A stretch of 64,000 nt of DNA from an uncultured Gemmatimonadaceae bacterium (GTDB lineage: Bacteria; Gemmatimonadota; Gemmatimonadetes; Gemmatimonadales; Gemmatimonadaceae), in NCBI GenBank assembly GCA_963790305.1, contig CAWBOC010000005.1:416001-480000 (forward strand). The letters run 5' to 3'. A program made the translations under genes and the position numbers. How positions within the stretch are numbered: position 1 is the stretch's first letter; every line of letters starts with the position of its first letter. Of this stretch, positions 35,457 to 45,566 are shown piece after piece. The notes beneath the pieces are model-generated. The model had not been told where the DNA came from. It did not search any database and saw only the letters and a list, made by a program, of their open reading frames with translations.

Positions 35457-35912
35457 ATGGCCAATGACATCGAGCAGCCGCCGCGAGGCTACAACACGGA
35501 AGACGTGAAGGCGGTGGCGGAACCGGAGCCTCCCCCGCCCACGCGTCGTCGCTCCCGGTGGAAGCTGTTTGTGGTGGCGCTCGTTCTTGTCCCGCTCCTG
35601 GCTTTCGCACTGTGGACGTGGGTCGCGCTCACTTGGTCCTACTCTGACGGATACCGGCCGGGGTTTGTCCAAAAAATCTCGCGCAAGGGATGGCTGTGCA
35701 AAACGTGGGAGGGAGAGCTGGCGCAGTCCGCCGTGCCTGGGTCCATGCCCAGTGTGTTCCACTTCAGCGTTCGTGACGATTCCGTTGCCCGGCAGATCGA
35801 CGCCCTCTCCGGAAAGCGGGTGTCGCTGCACTACGAGGAGCACCGCGGCATCCCGACCTCCTGTTTTGGCGAGACCAACTACTTCGTAACGGGCGTTCGC
35901 GTGCTCGACTAG
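35457..35912 (+). CDS. Hypothetical single-TM protein
   Basis: TM helix then [40 protein letters not shown]. Confidence 0.8.
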
Positions 35913-35965
35913 CTGGACAGCATGAAGCTTGCACTGCTGTCCGGTCCTAAACGGAGGTGGACGCA

Positions 35966-36487
35966 ATGGACAGAGGCATGGATTTCCTGCGCAGCCAGAT
36001 CAACAACGCGGTCATGCAGCATCAGACTTTCCTCGAGTCGCTCGTGGATCATGAGCGCGAGGCGAAGGATGCACGATTCCGCGACCTGTGCAGCCGACAT
36101 ATCCCAATGATGCGTGAGCATCAGCGGATGCTCGAGCAGTATCAGCAACAGCTCGGCGCCCAGTCCGGCGTCGGGAAGAAGATGCTCGGAAAGGCGCTCG
36201 GTATCGCCAAGGACCTGGCCGACGTCGCGCGCGAGAGCGACTTCCTGCGCCTCGTGCAGGACATCGTCATGGCGCGTCAGTCGGAGGACACGTTCAAGAC
36301 GTTCCGTGAGGCGGGCAGGGAGCTCGGCAACGAACAGCTCCGGCAGATTGGCGACACGGGCGAGCGTCACCACGACGAGTACGTGAAGGAAGCGAACCGT
36401 CTCTGCGCGCAGCTGTTCGTCGAGCACGTGCGCGGCGAGGGCGCGGTCGCGGCGACGGCGGAGACCCGAACGACTCCCGGCGTCTGA
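35966..36487 (+). CDS. Ferritin-like four-helix protein
   Basis: All-helical, Glu/His-rich (EHQRMLE, ERHHDEY); GGAGG SD before ATG 35966. Confidence 0.7.
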   Translation: MDRGMDFLRSQINNAVMQHQTFLESLVDHEREAKDARFRDLCSRHIPMMREHQRMLEQYQQQLGAQSGVGKKMLGKALGIAKDLADVARESDFLRLVQDIVMARQSEDTFKTFREAGRELGNEQLRQIGDTGERHHDEYVKEANRLCAQLFVEHVRGEGAVAATAETRTTPGV

Positions 36488-37077: not shown

Positions 37078-37752
37078 ATGTATCGCTCGTCGCTCGTGCT
37101 CGTAGTCACCGTGGTCGCGCTCGCCGGATGCGCTACCATGGGACGGCAGGTCGAAACGGACTCCGGTGACCTGGCGACGGACCTCGAACAGGCGCGACAA
37201 GACACCGTTCGGGCGCGGGCGGCGTACGACACGGTGATCGGACAGCGCCGAGCGGTCAATGCGCGCACCGTCGCGTTCGAGGACAGCCTCAGGCGTGCGC
37301 GTGAGGCGGCACTGGCCGCCGCGGCAGCGGCACGTGATTCCGCGCAGCGAGTGGCCGCCGCCACCGTCACCACGCCCGAGCCCGGCGGTGGTGAGCGAGC
37401 GCTGTCGGACGCCGAGGTCCGCGTCATGTCACAGCAGCTCTACTTCTCGACGAACAGCGCGCACCTCACGAACGCGGCGCGCGCGCTGTTACGCGAGAAG
37501 GCGGCCATCCTGGCTCGCAACCCTGCCCTCACCCTTACCCTCACCGGCCACGCCGACGCTCGGGGCGCAGCCGACTACAACCAGCGACTGAGCGAGCGAC
37601 GAGCGGCGGCGGTGCAGCGCTTCCTCGTCGAGCTCGGGATCGAGGCCCAGCGTCTCACCAGCGAAGGTCGAGGCGAAGAGGCACCGGCGATCGAAGGATC
37701 TGGCGAGCGGGTATGGCAGCGTAATCGGCGGGTCGAGTTCATGATCTCCTGA
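37078..37752 (+). CDS. OmpA/Pal-family peptidoglycan-binding lipoprotein
   Basis: Lipobox LAGC; YFSTNSA, GHADARG..YNQRLSERRA, NRRVEF. Confidence 0.92.
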   Translation: MYRSSLVLVVTVVALAGCATMGRQVETDSGDLATDLEQARQDTVRARAAYDTVIGQRRAVNARTVAFEDSLRRAREAALAAAAAARDSAQRVAAATVTTPEPGGGERALSDAEVRVMSQQLYFSTNSAHLTNAARALLREKAAILARNPALTLTLTGHADARGAADYNQRLSERRAAAVQRFLVELGIEAQRLTSEGRGEEAPAIEGSGERVWQRNRRVEFMIS

Positions 37753-38046
37753 CCGACGTCACCCCTGTCATGACGGGCGTGGTCGCTTGCGACCGCGCCC
37801 GTTTTGCATCCGGGCATTGGAGATGATCCGGGCCGCACGCATCCGCTGACGTCTTTCTGACGGATTTCGACATCGTGCCGGGGTCGCGCACAGAGTCTCG
37901 TGGCGCAGCTGGCACGGGACTTCAAAGCGGTGACTGGACAGAACCGCACGAGGCGCGGCTCACGACGGTGGAGCGATGGAGCCGCCGCGTGACCCCAATG
38001 GCGCGCGTCGCCATCACACTCCATTGAACCATACATGGAGGTTCAC

Positions 38047-38238
38047 ATGCAACCGATCACATCGCTCGGCGTTGCCGAGCTGACGCAGGATGAGCTGGTG
38101 GCGGTCGCGGGCGGAAGTGACGCGTGTTGGTGCAGCGGCCTCGCGAGCAAGCTGGGCTACGCAATCGGCTACGCACTCGGCGAGCTGGTCGACGCGCTGG
38201 TGAGCCCAGAGGATAACAACTCCTTCCTGGGCAAGTAG
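38047..38238 (+). CDS. Double-glycine leader peptide precursor 1 (bacteriocin-like)
   Basis: Leader ...LGVAELTQDELVAVAGG then 40-aa core SDACWC...FLGK; GGAGG SD before ATG 38047 (alternative start 38035). Confidence 0.88.
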   Translation: MQPITSLGVAELTQDELVAVAGGSDACWCSGLASKLGYAIGYALGELVDALVSPEDNNSFLGK

Positions 38239-38289
38239 CCGGATCGAGGATGCACCATCACAAACTTCCCACCTGCGAGGAACACCACC

Positions 38290-38490
38290 ATGCTCGATAC
38301 CCACATGCTTGCCGTCGACGGCGAGCACATCACCCTGCTCGATGAGCAGACACTGGCCTCCATCGTTGGAGGCGATGGCATCAGGGATTGGCTGGCCAAG
38401 AAAGTCGGAGAGCTGCTCTTCGACTGCCTGGCCGGAAGTCTCGACACGATCATTTCCGCCGCTGAAGAAGGGTATGGCGACGCGCGCTGA
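38290..38490 (+). CDS. Double-glycine leader peptide precursor 2 (bacteriocin-like)
   Basis: Leader ...ITLLDEQTLASIVGG then 38-aa core DGIRDW...GYGDAR; GAGG SD. Confidence 0.85.
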   Translation: MLDTHMLAVDGEHITLLDEQTLASIVGGDGIRDWLAKKVGELLFDCLAGSLDTIISAAEEGYGDAR

Positions 38491-38498
38491 AGCCCGCG

Positions 38499-38541
38499 CG
38501 CACCGTGTCCGGCGCGCCAGGCGCGCGCCGGACCGGGTGCG
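38499..38541 (+). other. GC-rich stem-loop after the precursor genes
   Basis: CGCACC..TCCGGCGCGC pairs with GCGCGCCGGA..GGTGCG; no U-tract. Confidence 0.6.
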
Positions 38542-38571
38542 TACCCCCGTGGCGGCAGGCGAGCGCTCTGA

Positions 38572-39441
38572 ATGGCACGGCGGCTTCGGAGAGGAGGGCG
38601 AGTCCGGTCGCTCCTGAGTGCCGTGTTCTCCATTGCGTGGACCTATGCGTGGATGGTTCCTGTCGTCGCCGCGCTCAAGATGGATGCGGTTGAGGCGATC
38701 GCGGTCCTGGTGGGCACAGTCGCTCTCTTCGTTGGCCTCTGCGTCATTCGCCCACTGAGAGCAAACCCGCGGGCCGCGGCGCTTCTCCGCTTGCGCTCCT
38801 GTCGTGTCTACCTCCCGGCGTTGACGCTTGCGACCGCCATGAAGCTGCTTCTCATGCTTTCCACGCTTGCCCTACACGAGCAACTCGCCGCGCGTCGCCT
38901 GTTGCCGAAAATGCCGGATGACGGGGACGTCATTACGGCCGAGCTCCTGGCGCAGCCGTTAGGTCAGGTCGCGCTATTCCTCGGAATCGTGGTGATGGCT
39001 CCATTGATCGAGGAGTTTGGCTTCCGCGGTCGTGTGCAGCACACCCTCGAGCACGCATTCGGCGTGGTTCCGGCCATCGCGGCGAGCGCTGTGCTGTTCA
39101 GCGCGCTTCATGGAAGGATCAATGCGGCGCACCATCTTGCCTTCGGCGTCTTCGCTGGATGGGTGGTGTGGCGAACCGGGTCCATCTGGTCGGCCGTGTA
39201 CATGCACGCGCTCAACAACGCCGCCGCCCAGCTCCTGCTGCACCTCACGACCATCTCGGCTGCTGACTGGAGCGACAAAACCGCCGGGCTCGGGCCGTAC
39301 GCGATCGTCGCCGCGCTCGTCGGCCTCAGCGGGCTGGTCGCCGCGGGCGCCCGCATCCACCGCACAGCTCGAGCAGAAGGGCGCGGCGGCCACAACGGGA
39401 GAACCCGGTCGGCGCGAATGGCGGTTTCGCCGGTGGCGTGA
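38572..39441 (+). CDS. CPBP/Abi (type II CAAX) intramembrane metalloprotease, putative immunity protein
   Basis: EEFGFRG, FSALH, HALNN motifs in a polytopic membrane protein. Confidence 0.9.
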   Translation: MARRLRRGGRVRSLLSAVFSIAWTYAWMVPVVAALKMDAVEAIAVLVGTVALFVGLCVIRPLRANPRAAALLRLRSCRVYLPALTLATAMKLLLMLSTLALHEQLAARRLLPKMPDDGDVITAELLAQPLGQVALFLGIVVMAPLIEEFGFRGRVQHTLEHAFGVVPAIAASAVLFSALHGRINAAHHLAFGVFAGWVVWRTGSIWSAVYMHALNNAAAQLLLHLTTISAADWSDKTAGLGPYAIVAALVGLSGLVAAGARIHRTARAEGRGGHNGRTRSARMAVSPVA

Positions 39442-39444
39442 GCC

Positions 39445-40635
39445 GTGAGCCGTGAGGCAATGGTTCCCGCTCCGCTCGTCGAGGATTGCGTCGAGGTTCA
39501 CCTCGCGCGACATGCCCCGACTGGTCGCGCGCTGTACCTGACGATCCTGGCGACGACAACCGCCGCGGCCATGGCCATGCCCATCGTACAGGTGCCGGTG
39601 ACGGTGCAGGCCAACGGCGTGATCCGTCCGGTCATTGAGCGCCAGGATGCCCGGGTCGCAGAAAGCGGCATCGTTCACATCGTATACGCGCGCGACGGCG
39701 ACAGGGTTCGGGCCGGCGACACCCTGATCGCGCTCAATGCCCGCACCGTCAGGATTCGCCTCGCCGCGTCCGATGCAATCGCGCACGCGCGGGAAACCGA
39801 GCTCGCTGATCTCGAGCAGCTCCTCAATGCGGGAGATTCACTCGTCTCGTGGCAGAGCCTCGCGACGCCGCACCGCCGACAGCAGTCTCGTGAGCATGCG
39901 GCGATCATGACGGAGCTCGAGGCTCGAGCGAGGGCGGAGGGCCGGGAAGCCGACCGCTTGCGTACACTCCTGGTCGGGGGCTTCGTCGCGCCCGAGCAGC
40001 TCGAGAGACAGGATGCGGCTCGCCGCACCGCACAGGCAGCGGTGCGCGAGCACGTCGAGCGGATGCGGTCGAACTGGTCTGACGCACGCGCCCGAATCGC
40101 CAATGATCTCCGCCGCCTCGACAGCGAGCGCGCCAATGCGGGAGAAGCGCTCGCGCGGCGTGTCGTAATCGCCCCGGTCGATGGAACGCTCGAAATGGCT
40201 GCCTCTCTCTCGCCAGGGAGCGTGCTGCAGCAGGGCGAGCGCGTCGCCACCATCTCGCCGAACACCGATCTGGTTGGCGAAGCGCTACTGACGGCGCGCG
40301 ACATTGCGCTCGTGCGACGCGGGACTCCAGTGCGCCTCATGATCGACGCACTCAACTACCGTGACTGGGGCGTGGTGGACGCGACGGTGATCGATGTCGC
40401 CGACGACGCGTCTCTGAGCGCCGAGCAGCCTGTGTTTCGGGTGCGCTGCCAGCTTTCGCGCCATGACTTGCGCCTTCGCGACGGACACCGCGTCGCCCTG
40501 GGCAAGGGACTCACATTTCGCGCGCGATTCGTCATCGCCGAGCGCTCATTGTTACAGCTGCTGTTCGATGATGTCGATGACTGGCTGAATCCAGCGCGGG
40601 GCCGGCCGGTCCCGGCGGCAACCGTTAGGCTGTGA
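39445..40635 (+). CDS. HlyD-family membrane fusion protein
   Basis: TM, ANGVIRP, GDRVRAGDTL lipoyl half, coiled coil, IAPVDG, IDALNYRDWG, GLTFRARF. Confidence 0.92.
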   Translation: MSREAMVPAPLVEDCVEVHLARHAPTGRALYLTILATTTAAAMAMPIVQVPVTVQANGVIRPVIERQDARVAESGIVHIVYARDGDRVRAGDTLIALNARTVRIRLAASDAIAHARETELADLEQLLNAGDSLVSWQSLATPHRRQQSREHAAIMTELEARARAEGREADRLRTLLVGGFVAPEQLERQDAARRTAQAAVREHVERMRSNWSDARARIANDLRRLDSERANAGEALARRVVIAPVDGTLEMAASLSPGSVLQQGERVATISPNTDLVGEALLTARDIALVRRGTPVRLMIDALNYRDWGVVDATVIDVADDASLSAEQPVFRVRCQLSRHDLRLRDGHRVALGKGLTFRARFVIAERSLLQLLFDDVDDWLNPARGRPVPAATVRL

Positions 40636-42800
40636 GGCTGCGCCGATCGGTTCCGCCGGTGCGCCAGCGCGACAGCTCTGACTGCGGCGCCGCCTGTCTC
40701 GTGAGCATTGCCGGATGGTATCGGCTGCGTCTCCCGATCGCGCGCGTACGACAGCTCACACATACCGACCGGCGTGGGACCACGGCGCTCGGCCTCGTGG
40801 AAGCCGCGACGAGACTGGGGTTCCAGGCCAAGGGCGTACGCGCGACACGAGAGGCGCTCGGGGCACTTCCGCTCCCGGCGATCGCCCACGTGACCCGCGG
40901 TCACCTGCAGCATTGGGTGGTCCTCTCGCGTCTCGAGGCGAGGCATATGGAGATCATGGACCCGGCCTCGGGAGCACGCGAGCGCGTCAGTCGGGAGTCC
41001 TTCGAGCGTGAATGGTCGGGAGCGATGGTGCTGCTCGCGCCTGCGAGTCGATTCGCTGCCGGGGACCAGCGAACCTCGATCGTTCGCCGCTTTATCGCTC
41101 TCATCGCGCCGCATCGAGCCATCCTCACCATGGCCCTCGTGGGCGCAGTGATCCACACCGCGCTCGGGCTGACGACGACCGTCTACGTGCAGCAGTTGGT
41201 GGATCACGTTCTCGTCGACGGCAATCGAAACCTGCTCAACCTGATGAGCGTCGCCGTGCTGACCCTGATTGCCGCGCAGACGCTCGTGGGCGGCATGAAG
41301 GGTCTCCTTGTTCTCCATATCGGCCAGCGGATCGACGCGACGCTCATCCTTGGATATTACAGACACCTGTTGAGCCTGCCGCAGCGTTTTTTCGACACAA
41401 TGCGGATTGGAGAGATCACCTCTCGCGTCGGCGATGCGGTCAGGATTCGCGCGCTCATCAACGACATTGCCGTCGAGCTCATCGTCAGCACGCTGGTGAT
41501 CGCGCTGTCACTCGTCCTGCTATTCCTGTACAGCGCGACGCTCGGTCTGCTGGTTCTGGGAACCTTTCCGATCTACGTTGCCATTTGGGCGCTGGCGAAC
41601 ACGCGGAACCGACACGCGTCGCGCGCGCTCATGGAGCGGAGCGCGGAGCTCCAGTCACAGATCGTGGAGTCGGTCTCCATGATCGGAACGATCAAGCGCT
41701 TTGGGCTGGAGACGGACATGGAGCTGCGCACGGAGGTTCGCTTCGTCCGACTTCTCCGGGCCGTGTTCCGGTCGGCGGGAACCGCTCTCATGACAAGCAC
41801 AGCGACCGGCGCGGTGTCACGGCTGGCAGTCGTCGCCGTGCTCTGGACAGGGTCAGTCCTCGTGATCGAGCGCCGGCTAACACCCGGCGAGCTCATGTCT
41901 TCCTATGCGCTGCTCGGATACCTGACCGGTCCACTACTGACGTTGATCACCGCAAACCGAAGCATTCAGAATGCGCTCATCGCCGCGGATCGCCTGTTCG
42001 AGATCCTTGACCTGGAACAGGATCGCGTCACCGCGCATGCAACGATGGATGTGACCATCGGTGGCGACATCGACTTCGAGCACGTGAGCTTCCGCTACGG
42101 GGCGCGCGCACCGGCGCTCCGAAATGTGACACTACGATTTCGTCGTGGTGCCATCACGGCGGTCGTCGGCGACAGTGGTTCCGGGAAGAGCACGATCGCC
42201 GCACTCGCGCAGCGCGTGTATGTGGCGGACGACGGCCGCGTTCGCATCGGGGGCATCGACGTTCGACACCTGAGCAGCGAATCGATACGCGCGCTGGTCT
42301 GTACGGTGCCACAGCGCATCGATCTCCTCGCGGGGTCGATTGTCGAGAACATTGCCCTTGGTGATTCAGAGCCCGACATGAGACGCGTCCTCGAGGCAGC
42401 GCGGGCCGCAGGAATCGTCGACATGATCGATCGCCTTCCGGCGGGAGTCGACACCGAGCTGGGCGAAAATGGCGCCACGCTGTCAGGGGGCGAGCGTCAG
42501 CGCCTCGCGATCGCGCGCGCTCTGTACCGGGATTCGGAGATTCTCATTCTCGACGAGGCGACATCATCGCTCGATGGCCCGTCGGTGCAGCGGGTTCGTC
42601 AGCTCACCGAGGAGCGTCGCGCTCGCGGGCGGACGGTGATCGTGATCGCGCACAGCCCCGATCTCGTGATCGGCGCGGATCACATCGTCGTCATGCGAGA
42701 CGGGATCGTCGTCGAGGAGGGGACGCACGCCGACCTCATCAGCCGGCGTGGCGCCTATCATGCGTTATGGGAAGGCCGAAGCCTTGGGCGTGTGGCGTAA
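40632..42800 (+). CDS. Peptidase C39-containing ABC transporter (PCAT)
   Basis: QRDSSDCGAAC, HWVV, MDPA catalytic residues; TM domain; GDSGSGKST, LSGGERQR, ILILDE, IAH. Confidence 0.96.
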   Translation: MRLRRSVPPVRQRDSSDCGAACLVSIAGWYRLRLPIARVRQLTHTDRRGTTALGLVEAATRLGFQAKGVRATREALGALPLPAIAHVTRGHLQHWVVLSRLEARHMEIMDPASGARERVSRESFEREWSGAMVLLAPASRFAAGDQRTSIVRRFIALIAPHRAILTMALVGAVIHTALGLTTTVYVQQLVDHVLVDGNRNLLNLMSVAVLTLIAAQTLVGGMKGLLVLHIGQRIDATLILGYYRHLLSLPQRFFDTMRIGEITSRVGDAVRIRALINDIAVELIVSTLVIALSLVLLFLYSATLGLLVLGTFPIYVAIWALANTRNRHASRALMERSAELQSQIVESVSMIGTIKRFGLETDMELRTEVRFVRLLRAVFRSAGTALMTSTATGAVSRLAVVAVLWTGSVLVIERRLTPGELMSSYALLGYLTGPLLTLITANRSIQNALIAADRLFEILDLEQDRVTAHATMDVTIGGDIDFEHVSFRYGARAPALRNVTLRFRRGAITAVVGDSGSGKSTIAALAQRVYVADDGRVRIGGIDVRHLSSESIRALVCTVPQRIDLLAGSIVENIALGDSEPDMRRVLEAARAAGIVDMIDRLPAGVDTELGENGATLSGGERQRLAIARALYRDSEILILDEATSSLDGPSVQRVRQLTEERRARGRTVIVIAHSPDLVIGADHIVVMRDGIVVEEGTHADLISRRGAYHALWEGRSLGRVA

Positions 42801-42808
42801 CACCCGCG

Positions 42809-44296
42809 TCAGGGCGTTACCAACCTCAATTCGTTCCCGCGTGTGCTGTCCCACTTCTCGGTGAGCGACGCACGGGCGGCGTCGATTTGCGATCGAACGG
42901 CTCCCGGCCCCGTCCCCCCTTCCGCCTCCCGTCGCTCGACCGATCGCAGCGCCGACAGGGCGTCGAACACATCGCGCTCGAACTCCGAATGCGCCGACGC
43001 GAAGGACTCGAAGGGGAGCGTGTTCAGCTCGCAACGCTTCTCTTCTGCTTCGCGCACCAGCTTCCCGACCGCGGCATGCGCCTCGCGGAACGAGGCGCCC
43101 TTCTCCACGAGATAGTCCGCGAGATCGGTTGCCATCATCGAGCTCCCCAGCGCCGACTTCATTCGCTCCGGGCGAAACGCCAGCTCGGCGAGTGTTCCGG
43201 TGACTGCCGGAAGCACCAGCAGCATGGTGTCGACCGCATCGAACAAGGCTCGCTTGTCGTCCTGCAAATCCTTGTTGTAGCCGGTGGGCAGGCCTTTGAT
43301 GGTGCCGAGAAGGGCGACCAGATCCCCCAGCAGTCGCGCACCCGAGCCGCGCGCGATCTCCAGCGCATCCGGATTGCGCTTCTGCGGCATCATGCTCGAT
43401 CCGGTGGTGAACGAGTCGCCGAACTGCACGAACCCGAACTCGCTGGACCCGAACAGGATGAGATCTTCGGCCAGGCGCGACAGGTGGGTGGCGAGCATCG
43501 TCGTCGCGAACAGAAGCTCCGCAACGAAGTCACGATCGCTCACCGCATCGATGCTGTTCCGCGACAGGCCGGCGAACCCGAGGCTTCCCTGAAGCAGCAC
43601 GCGGGAAATCGGGAATGCGCAGCCCGCGATGGCGCCAGAGCCTAACGGCAGGACGCCAGCGGCGCGCGATGCGCCCTCGATTCGGGCGCGGTCGCGATCG
43701 AGCGGCCAAAAGTGCGAGAGCATCCAATGGGAAGCGAGCACTGGCTGTGCGCGCTGCAAGTGCGTGTACGACGGCATGAGCGTCGCACCCAGCTCGACCG
43801 CCCGGTCGAGCATCGTACGCTGCAGGGCACGCACGGCCGCGTCCAGCGTCGTACACGCCTCCATCGCCCACAGGCGCGTGGCGGTCGCCACCTGATCGTT
43901 GCGCGACCGCCCGGTATGAAGCTTGGACGCGATGTCCCCGATCTCTTCGTGCAGAAGGCGATCGATGAGCGTGTGCACGTCCTCGTCGGACGCGATCGGA
44001 GACTCGCCGGCGCCGAGGCGTTCGGCGACAGCGTCGAGTCCGTGCTCGATGGCCGTACTCTCTTCCAGGGTGAGGACGCCTGCATGCCAGAGCGCCACCG
44101 CCCAGGCCTTGGAAAGCTTCACGTCGAACGGCCAGAGACGGAGATCGGTCCCGATCGACCGGTTCAGAGCATCGAGCTCCGGTGCCGGGCCGGTCGCGAA
44201 GCGGCCACCCCACAACCGATGTGTGCCGCGGGCGGTGCGCTGCGCGGCTGTGTCGTCCGCGCCGGTATCGGGCTCGACTACGAGGTTGGGAATCAT
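42809..44296 (-). CDS. argH: Argininosuccinate lyase
   Basis: LWGGRF, LHTGRSRNDQ, YTHLQRAQP, GSSMMPQKRNPD, YNKDLQ. Confidence 0.98.
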   Translation of the reverse strand: MIPNLVVEPDTGADDTAAQRTARGTHRLWGGRFATGPAPELDALNRSIGTDLRLWPFDVKLSKAWAVALWHAGVLTLEESTAIEHGLDAVAERLGAGESPIASDEDVHTLIDRLLHEEIGDIASKLHTGRSRNDQVATATRLWAMEACTTLDAAVRALQRTMLDRAVELGATLMPSYTHLQRAQPVLASHWMLSHFWPLDRDRARIEGASRAAGVLPLGSGAIAGCAFPISRVLLQGSLGFAGLSRNSIDAVSDRDFVAELLFATTMLATHLSRLAEDLILFGSSEFGFVQFGDSFTTGSSMMPQKRNPDALEIARGSGARLLGDLVALLGTIKGLPTGYNKDLQDDKRALFDAVDTMLLVLPAVTGTLAELAFRPERMKSALGSSMMATDLADYLVEKGASFREAHAAVGKLVREAEEKRCELNTLPFESFASAHSEFERDVFDALSALRSVERREAEGGTGPGAVRSQIDAARASLTEKWDSTRGNELRLVTP

Positions 44297-44303
44297 CTCA
44301 GCC

Positions 44304-45566
44304 TCACGCGATCGCGAGAGAGGGTTCAGGCTCCGCTTCCTGCTTCTCCGTGGACTCCTCGACTGCGTCGCGAGCTTCGGCGTCCTTGAGCGCGCGGACA
44401 CGCGCGGGAAGGGCGAACAGGCGAATGAAGCCGCCCGCGTCTGCCTGTTCGTACACGTCGTCCTCGCCGAACGTCACGAAGCGCTCGTCATAGAGCGCGT
44501 GGTCACTCGCGCGACCAGCGATGATCACATTGCCCTTGTAGAGGCGCAGTGTGACGGTCCCGGTCACGCGTTCCTGCGTCACCGATACGAACGCATCATA
44601 GGCTTCGCGCTCGGTGGTCCACCACCGCCCCTCATAGACGAGGTCGGCGTATCGTGGCGCGATGAGATCCTTGGCGGCAAGCGTTCGGCGATCGAGGACC
44701 AGCTGCTCGAGCTCCGAATGCGCCGCGTAGAGGAGCGTCCCGCCAGGCGTCTCGTAAATACCGCGAGACTTCATGCCGACCAGTCGATCCTCCACGAGGT
44801 CAATGCGTCCAACGCCATGACGGCCGCCGATCGTGTTGAGCGTTGACACCAGCGTCACGGGATCCAGGCGCTCGCCATTCACCGCGACCGGGGTTCCGCG
44901 CTCGAACTCTATCGTTACGTCCTCGTGCTCATCAGGCGCCTCGGCCGGCGAGGTACTGAGCATGAACAGATCGTCGGGCGGAACGGCCGAAGGATCCTCG
45001 AGCATCCCGCCCTCGTGCGAGATGTGCCACAGGTTACTGTCACGCGAGTAGATCTTCTGCGCGGTGGCCGCGACCGGGATGTTGCGCTTCGCGGCATACG
45101 CGAGCGCATCCTCGCGGCTCCGAATATCCCAGACGCGCCATGGCGCGATGACCGGAAGCTCGGGGGCGAACGTCGCGTAGGTGAGCTCGAAGCGCACCTG
45201 GTCATTCCCCTTGCCGGTGCATCCATGTGCGAGCGCATCTGCCCCGATGGCCTTGGCAACCTCGCACTGGCGGCGCGCGATCAACGGGCGCGCGATGGAC
45301 GTGCCGAGGAGGTATTTCCGTCCGTAGATGGCCCCGGCGCGAAGCATGGGCCACAGGAAGTCCTCGACGAACTCCTGTCGAAGATCCTCCACGTAGCACT
45401 CGTCGGCGCCGGAGGCGAGCGCCTTGGCGCGGACGCCTTCGAGCTCGTTCCCCTGGCCGATGTCGGCCGCGACGCAAACGACCCGGGCCTCGTAATGCTC
45501 CTTGAGCCAGGGAACGATGATCGACGTGTCGAGTCCGCCGGAGTAGGCGAGGACGATAGTGCGCAT
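44304..45566 (-). CDS. argG: Argininosuccinate synthase
   Basis: [37 protein letters not shown]. Confidence 0.98.

Follow-up and report, generated by a model that had tools for sequence, protein, structure and literature searches.

A putative two-peptide double-glycine export system shared by the sampled species of a Gemmatimonadaceae genus

Double-glycine peptide exporters are common; to our knowledge, the microcins described so far are single peptides and the described two-peptide bacteriocins are Gram-positive. Among these systems, the class IIb bacteriocins, such as plantaricin EF/JK and lactococcin G, are encoded by two different adjacent precursor genes in one operon, their double-glycine leaders measure 15–30 residues, and GxxxG motifs occur in all the characterised members, (PMC2850506). 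The class IIa microcins, exemplified by MccV, combine a double-glycine signal with a peptidase-containing ABC transporter (PCAT; CvaB) and a membrane-fusion protein (MFP; CvaA) encoded together, whereas TolC is provided in trans (PMC10233263). Class II microcins have been reported to occur widely among Gram-negative bacteria (PMC12219008). The subject of the present analysis is a five-gene cluster located at positions 38047–42800, + strand, of a 64,000-nt stretch of Gemmatimonadaceae DNA (the window, to whose numbering positions refer unless another locus is named). The operon probably directs a diderm cell to secrete an antibacterial of two unmodified peptides, similar in kind to class IIb bacteriocins or class IIa microcins. 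It works like a class IIb two-peptide locus to which the export logic of class IIa microcins, an MFP plus TolC, has been added.

The five genes run in the same direction in the order pepA, pepB, CPBP protease, HlyD adaptor and C39 ABC transporter. pepA extends from the ATG at 38047 to the stop at 38238 and encodes a 63-aa double-glycine precursor, with a 23-aa leader (MQPITSLGVAELTQDELVAVAGG) and a 40-aa core; a Shine-Dalgarno (SD) sequence, GGAGG, is placed at 38037–38041, 5 nt 5′ of the start codon. An upstream in-frame ATG at 38035, which would give a 67-aa reading of pepA, was rejected as the start and the start was set at 38047 because the upstream codon is missing from two relatives. After a spacing of 51 nt, pepB extends from the ATG at 38290 to the stop at 38490, with its own SD (GAGGA, 38277–38281), and encodes a 66-aa double-glycine precursor whose 28-aa leader ends in LLDEQTLASIVGG and precedes a 38-aa core. 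Both leaders fall inside the length range of class IIb and both present hydrophobic residues at −4, −7 and −12 relative to the double glycine. The two peptide genes are single-copy in a search of the genome. Downstream lie the CPBP/Abi (Rce1-like) intramembrane protease (38572–39441, 289 aa, PF02517 at 6.8e-19), the HlyD-family membrane-fusion (periplasmic adaptor) protein (39445–40635, 396 aa, with an N-terminal anchor) and the PCAT (40632–42800, 722 aa, with C39, transmembrane and nucleotide-binding domains). The junctions are tight, with a gap of 3 nt between the CPBP and HlyD genes and an overlap of 4 nt between the HlyD and PCAT genes, which speaks for an operon. An earlier interpretation, made from the letters alone and referred to below as the sequence-only reading, had described the same tandem precursors with their SDs and double-glycine leaders, and its placements proved exact. 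It had also set the cluster between an OmpA-family gene and argH, which is correct: the PCAT gene stops at 42800 and the convergent argH open reading frame (ORF), on the minus strand, ends at 42809, 8 bp away. Further, no kinase, regulator, modifying enzyme or outer-membrane factor was found in or beside the cluster when the flanks were checked against Pfam, in agreement with the statement that the cluster contains neither a modifying enzyme nor a TolC-type gene.

The analysis of the export genes indicated that, by its motifs, the transporter is a catalytically intact PCAT. The three expected domains were recognised (Peptidase_C39 PF03412, 2.3e-33, 115.3 bits against a cut-off of 22; ABC_membrane PF00664, 6.8e-44, 151 bits; ABC_tran PF00005, 3.5e-26, 92.9 bits), the C39 motif QRDSSDCG is found at residue 12, and the Walker A, LSGG, Walker B and H-loop motifs of the nucleotide-binding domain are found at residues 513, 617, 637 and 672. 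The protein aligned end to end with the solved PCAT1 of Clostridium thermocellum (4ry2, 7e-148), including the Q...DCG, His and Asp segments, and over its full length with ComA (5.7e-114), again with the C39 catalytic segments aligned. PCAT1 and ComA belong to monoderm or atypical envelopes and need no HlyD adaptor. In contrast with both, the transporter gene of the window is translationally coupled to a HlyD gene (HlyD_3, 7e-14; TIGR01843, 1.2e-39), and the presence of this adaptor in the operon can be explained because the producer is diderm, as its OmpA, OEP and HlyD genes indicate. The PCAT gene is the sole C39 gene of the genome; its presumptive substrates, the two precursors whose leaders it would cleave, are encoded 2.1–2.6 kb 5′ of it and in the same direction. 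The OEP domain gave 14 matches elsewhere in the genome, corresponding to about 7 TolC-family genes, so that an outer-membrane partner is available in trans, and in microcin systems TolC is likewise encoded apart from the cluster (PMC10233263). The Pfam and TIGRFAM scores together with the motif check thus bear out the intact, co-directional CPBP, HlyD and C39 genes of the sequence-only reading, and the architecture supports its view of an unmodified two-component double-glycine export system. The word ‘complete’ that it applied to the cluster holds for the five genes but not for the outer-membrane factor, which must come from elsewhere in the genome.

The relatives of the two small ORFs indicate that these are real genes. 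Word-indexed profile searches of 5.8 billion proteins retrieved 81 clusters of pepA and 111 of pepB, all at E ≤ 3.6e-9 and without twilight matches. Alignments were then limited to rows of comparable length: 58 for pepA (the window and 57 of the 80 other matches, 23 rows with a longer N-terminus or a truncation having been dropped) and 107 for pepB (5 dropped for the same reasons). The pepA core (4136 Da, pI 4.10) carries a CWC motif, a GxxxGxxxG stretch and a conserved tail, SPEDxNSFLGK, in which six positions are invariant; exactly two cysteines, those of CWC, and a GxxxG were present in all 58 aligned cores, whose median net charge is −3. The pepB core (4070 Da, pI 4.24) has a single invariant cysteine, found exactly once in 107/107 members, a median net charge of −5 over the family and a conserved tail, AAEEGYxDAR; a small-xxx-small-xxx-small pattern is present in every member. 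dN/dS, estimated by the Nei-Gojobori method over 28 pairs from 8 genomes of the genus (G003 was omitted for one-codon length differences, and G114, from another genus, as too distant), was 0.15 for the pepA core and 0.31 for the pepB core, and 0.36 and 0.375 for the respective leaders. Purifying selection therefore acts on both cores. Because the frames are intact in the eight other species of the genus that were sampled, dN/dS is below 1 and the families comprise 81 and 111 clusters, the peptide ORFs go beyond what chance would produce. AlphaFold2 runs on the alignments yielded modest models (pLDDT 64 for pepA and 57 for pepB), each with a short helix in the leader and a single long one in the core. 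The core helix is predicted at residues 27–52 in pepA (26 residues) and, at the low pLDDT of 57, at residues 31–62 in pepB (32 residues), whereas the nearly invariant C-terminal tails are predicted to be disordered.

The sequence-only reading had considered the peptides probably uncharacterised, and this view held: no characterised bacteriocin matched either core, by exhaustive HMMER for pepA and by the word-indexed search only for pepB, and the Pfam matches are sub-threshold. Its expectation that annotation pipelines would tend to miss such small genes was mistaken, since NCBI and JGI records already list both, as ‘hypothetical protein’ in the former and, for two members, as ‘natural product precursor’ in the latter. 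Run exhaustively with HMMER against 1.84 billion representatives, the pepA profile gave 7 matches, three of which are family representatives. Two repeat proteins (P0193 and P0194) were rejected, as they match the profile only at a CWCSS-like stretch. Two remote double-glycine peptides, P0195 from a Bacteroidia metagenome-assembled genome and P0196, share with pepA an LGYAIG(Y/W)...G..VDA-like core stretch (E ~3e-4) and, judging from this stretch, may belong with it to a wider, thinly populated peptide superfamily. A search of 401 Bacteroidia genomes with P0195 gave one marginal match, rejected as antisense to a dehydrogenase-like ORF. pepB matched no family beyond a leader-only trace and scored 13.2 bits against PF10439 (Bacteriocin_IIc), below the cut-off of 27.1. 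The ESM Atlas provided leads only, with scores of 0.88 (pepA) and 0.91 (pepB) against clusters of double-glycine peptides that are unnamed or generically named. Comparison of the pepA and pepB profiles with each other revealed no detectable kinship (hhalign probability 4.8%).

The distribution of the cluster was established by comparing genomes of the same family. The five genes occur in 8/8 other sampled species of the genus in the same order, although two contig ends interrupt the cluster in G001. The surrounding csp-ompA...argH-argG frame is visible in 7 of these species and not in the eighth because the G003 contig ends upstream of pepA. Identities to the window across the genus are 67–92% for pepA, 42–80% for pepB, 45–71% for CPBP, 59–77% for HlyD and 66–81% for PCAT, and 83–91% and 84–92% for the flanking OmpA and argH products. 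The pepA profile matched 10 of the 401 family genomes, namely that of the window, the eight of its genus and 1/3 of another genus, and 0/391 of the remainder, which amounts to 1/392 outside the genus and to 2/77 when counted by genus (the unpublished G015 is counted here among the genomes without a match). In four further genera (L038, L042, L043 and L049), csp lies 0.6–1.3 kb from the end of argH with no cluster between them. This comparison indicates that the OmpA gene and the five-gene cluster fill a variable csp-argH gap. Gene content and synteny suggest that the cluster was acquired at the base of the genus and retained thereafter, and that it is not a strain-level accessory island. The synteny of ompA and argH in relatives had been proposed as a check by the sequence-only reading, which saw in the locus an accessory insertion; this is true at genus depth and does not hold at strain level.

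The single occurrence outside the genus, G114 (77% complete), is instructive. Three of its genes are adjacent (L058 4089–5544), encoding a pepA-like peptide of 59 aa and a pepB-like peptide of 70 aa, each with one Cys, and a CPBP protein in which all the motifs are present, and no exporter adjoins this trio; a PCAT and a HlyD protein 55% and 39% identical to those of the window are encoded on a separate contig (L061 4606–8111) that has no peptide genes. Because G114 keeps peptides and CPBP together with the exporter unlinked, CPBP appears to be tied to the peptides and not to export. Including G114, pepA and pepB co-occur in 10/10 genomes that have either, with their order kept, and G001 and G006 have variant forms of both.

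The CPBP protein scores 68.4 bits against PF02517 (cut-off 22.4), has about 6 hydrophobic segments and bears the motifs EEFGFR at residue 147, FSALH at 176 and HALNN at 212. The underlying EExxxR, FxxxH and HxxxN are invariant in 10/10 orthologues, and for this reason the catalytic site is considered to be under selection. A scan of species-representative genomes kept 80 loci, corresponding to 8 genus orthologues and 72 weak relatives from many phyla with at most 45% identity over the catalytic core. A regular expression for double-glycine leader ORFs returned six matches beside the weak relatives, none of them credible on inspection, and the peptide-CPBP module was thus not seen beside the nearest CPBP relatives of other phyla (72 loci). 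Three roles have been reported for proteases of this kind beside bacteriocins, namely immunity, processing and reception (PMC9298176), and there are reports of CAAX/Abi proteases conferring immunity to bacteriocins (Kjos 2010, cited in PMC9298176). The immunity function put forward in the sequence-only reading is thus one of three candidates.

Several RNA elements accompany the peptide genes. A terminator-like hairpin with a T run follows the OmpA-family gene (37772–37803, + strand; 15 pairs, 5 of them compensatory across 9 species), for which reason the peptide genes are likely a separate transcription unit. Between this hairpin and pepA, positions 37822–38040 (+ strand) are a candidate 5′ UTR in the form of a structured leader RNA, with a common fold and 74% mean column identity in a 9-species alignment. 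Compensatory changes were found in 18/51 of its pairs, compared with 9.7±1.8 in column shuffles (0/500 reached 18) and 2–5 in slid controls, although the structure derives from the same alignment as the count, which biases it in favour of the fold. In the predicted last helix, an invariant CUCC (38019–38022) pairs with the GGAG of the pepA SD (38037–40), by which the leader RNA is predicted to mask the pepA ribosome-binding site; because this helix is invariant, covariation is uninformative for it. Rfam returned no match at gathering score; its single sub-threshold match, tpke11 (E 0.92), falls on the ompA terminator. When a covariance model was built from the 3′ 163 nt of the leader RNA, this locus was its only match in the genome, and the G114 loci gave none. 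A further element, a GC-rich hairpin without a T run (38499–38541, + strand), is located directly 3′ of the pepB stop, as the largest element of a 101-nt stretch (38480–38580) that folds at −61.4 kcal/mol (z −2.0). It is kept in 7/8 aligned species, G006 being different, and 5/19 pairs are compensatory among the seven that were folded. Lying between the precursor genes and those that follow, this hairpin may serve for attenuation or for stabilising the transcript. A promoter scan of 37600–43000 detected no promoter-like site on the + strand.

When the locus is set against the described systems, it agrees with class IIb bacteriocins in having two different precursor genes side by side in one operon (PMC2850506), in double-glycine leaders that would be removed by a dedicated ABC transporter, in cores predicted to be helical and in the GxxxG of pepA; in some class IIb loci a CPBP/Abi gene also adjoins the structural genes (PMC9298176). 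Unlike the Gram-positive class IIb systems, it belongs to a diderm producer, includes a HlyD adaptor in the operon and is fixed genus-wide, and the peptides reach no family cut-off. With class IIa microcins it has in common the GG signal, the joint encoding of PCAT and MFP with the outer-membrane factor elsewhere, a product predicted to be unmodified apart from possible disulfides, and a neutral or anionic charge (PMC10233263). Contrary to class IIa microcins, it encodes two peptides instead of one, its candidate immunity protein is an intact 289-aa CPBP protease and not a small membrane protein of ≤216 aa (PMC12219008), and the cluster is chromosomal and genus-wide. The microcin definition therefore fails on peptide number, size and type of immunity protein, and that of class IIb applies to gene arrangement and leaders but not clearly to GxxxG.

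The proposed mechanism would operate as follows. A single transcript would start downstream of the ompA terminator, its structured leader would gate pepA translation through masking of the SD, and the hairpin after pepB would keep the precursor message in excess of the transporter message. During export, cleavage by the C39 domain would fall behind G23 in pepA and G28 in pepB, the ABC transporter would move the 40- and 38-residue cores across the inner membrane and HlyD would couple it to a channel of the TolC family whose gene lies elsewhere. Once secreted, the two peptides, which are anionic, Cys-bearing and predicted to be helical, could jointly hit the membrane or a receptor of competitors, with the CPBP protease protecting the producer. 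From the sequence evidence, there is about an even chance that the locus encodes an unmodified bacteriocin- or microcin-like toxin of two peptides, against which CPBP protects the producer. A match to PF10439 at E ≤ 0.01 in 27/58 pepA members (best 5.9e-5, all below the cut-off), spanning from the leader into the GxxxG region, speaks in its favour, as does the neutral or anionic charge that is the rule among microcins (PMC10233263).

Other observations weigh against it. The window's pepA does not reach the PF10439 cut-off (19.2 bits, E 0.0012, against 27.1), and a strict GxxxG is found in only 21/107 pepB members, the window's copy not being one of them. Gram-positive class IIb peptides are cationic, whereas the pepA and pepB cores are anionic. 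At about 4.1 kDa each, the cores are smaller than the 5–10 kDa of class II microcins (PMC10233263). The system is fixed at a single chromosomal position in 8/8 other sampled species and its cores are constrained, not diversifying, in contrast to many bacteriocin loci that vary from strain to strain. The CPBP protein could be a processing enzyme or a receptor instead of an immunity protein; SilX, for instance, showed no role in immunity (PMC9298176). Finally, no RNA run was found to contain the locus (37800–39600), and 20 DNA runs matched it with at most 0.20 of the sampled words.

One alternative is that the exported peptides are signals (a pheromone or kin-communication pair) and not toxins, and that CPBP matures or senses them. 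Fixation together with purifying selection fits a housekeeping extracellular function, the nearly invariant tails with predicted disorder resemble recognition epitopes, a structured leader RNA of its own suggests regulated production, and a precedent exists in the CAAX protease SilX, linked to the processing of the quorum-sensing peptide SilCR (PMC9298176). We nevertheless consider signalling unlikely, given that no histidine kinase, response regulator or receptor gene is present in or beside the window cluster, nor, from the ORF list alone, any of these beside the G114 module, and that a signal has no need for two different peptides. In addition, a core of 38–40 residues that combines GxxxG with a helix long enough to span a membrane is a feature of pore-forming bacteriocins more often than of pheromones. 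A more speculative and equally improbable proposal is that of a vertically kept, genus-wide extracellular heterodimer, as opposed to a weapon differing among strains, in which the anionic helical peptides would be joined via their invariant cysteines (2+1), CPBP would mature or sense them and the RNA leader would gate their synthesis. If true, the peptides would serve a novel function in signalling or in the envelope, and no two-peptide double-glycine system would have been described before from this diderm phylum, of which hardly any members have been cultured.

Another idea is that pepA and pepB act independently, each as a one-peptide bacteriocin or one of them as an inducer of the other, and that they share an exporter without forming an obligate pair. 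PCAT loci often hold several unrelated double-glycine peptides, and the missing profile kinship between pepA and pepB and the general lack of GxxxG in pepB agree with this idea. Set against it are the co-occurrence and kept order in all ten genomes, even in the distant G114, the presence of one candidate immunity gene only, the invariant numbers of cysteines, which at 2+1 within the genus and 1+1 for G114 would fit an intermolecular bond, and the fact that the peptide types change in step in G001 and G006, which shared descent could also explain. Independent action seems slightly less probable than signalling. Least probable is that the peptides are precursors of a modified (RiPP) or further-trimmed product, made by enzymes encoded elsewhere or by CPBP removing a conserved terminal segment: the invariant CWC and single-Cys motifs, the JGI label, the invariance of the CPBP catalytic motifs, the processing of SagA by CAAX proteases (PMC9298176) and a weak match of the leader to TIGR04149 (rSAM-modified RiPP; E 0.032) suggest it, but that match is leader-only and far below the cut-off, the PCAT already supplies leader removal, and a modifying enzyme is absent from the cluster in all 9 genus genomes and from beside the G114 module.

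The cluster is in itself a fresh example of a common system type and no surprise. Its relevance lies in joining both designs, the two-peptide and the microcin-like, in Gemmatimonadaceae, a lineage of soil bacteria of which very few have been cultured, and in defining two clade-restricted peptide families without a characterised relative. The literature searched contained no description of the pepA and pepB families or of a two-peptide microcin, although supplementary files might list similar loci; the term ‘two-peptide’ is absent from PMC12219008 and PMC10233263, and ‘CPBP’ from PMC12219008. Should the peptides be active, they would constitute the first two-peptide, microcin-like toxin and offer a test case for the role of a CPBP protease beside such peptides, along with a candidate new cis-regulatory RNA. 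Should the locus be merely another bacteriocin locus, its value would be that of a clean annotated example with a corrected evolutionary status.

With regard to the neighbourhood, Pfam identified upstream of the cluster GcpE, two ORFs without a family, a cold-shock protein (CSD) and the OmpA-family gene (37078–37752, Pfam match 1.9e-19), and downstream argH, argG and argR. The two ORFs between GcpE and the cold-shock gene are located at 35457–35912 and 35957–36487 (+ strand), and the former has a clear homologue adjoining csp in another genus (L042 3893–4390). In the other genera, the csp-argH gap (L038 300–1366, L042 3043–3450, L043 990–1439 and L049 226–1406) is occupied by a small ORF of about 130–195 aa that carries a conserved KW(L/I/V)DN..SH stretch, sometimes together with a signal-peptide-bearing ORF that resembles an outer-membrane beta-barrel. 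The argH ORF, as listed at 42809–44401 (minus strand, 530 aa, GTG start), overlaps the end of argG by 98 nt. Since relatives from other genera align only from about residue 47–60, its true start is probably farther downstream.

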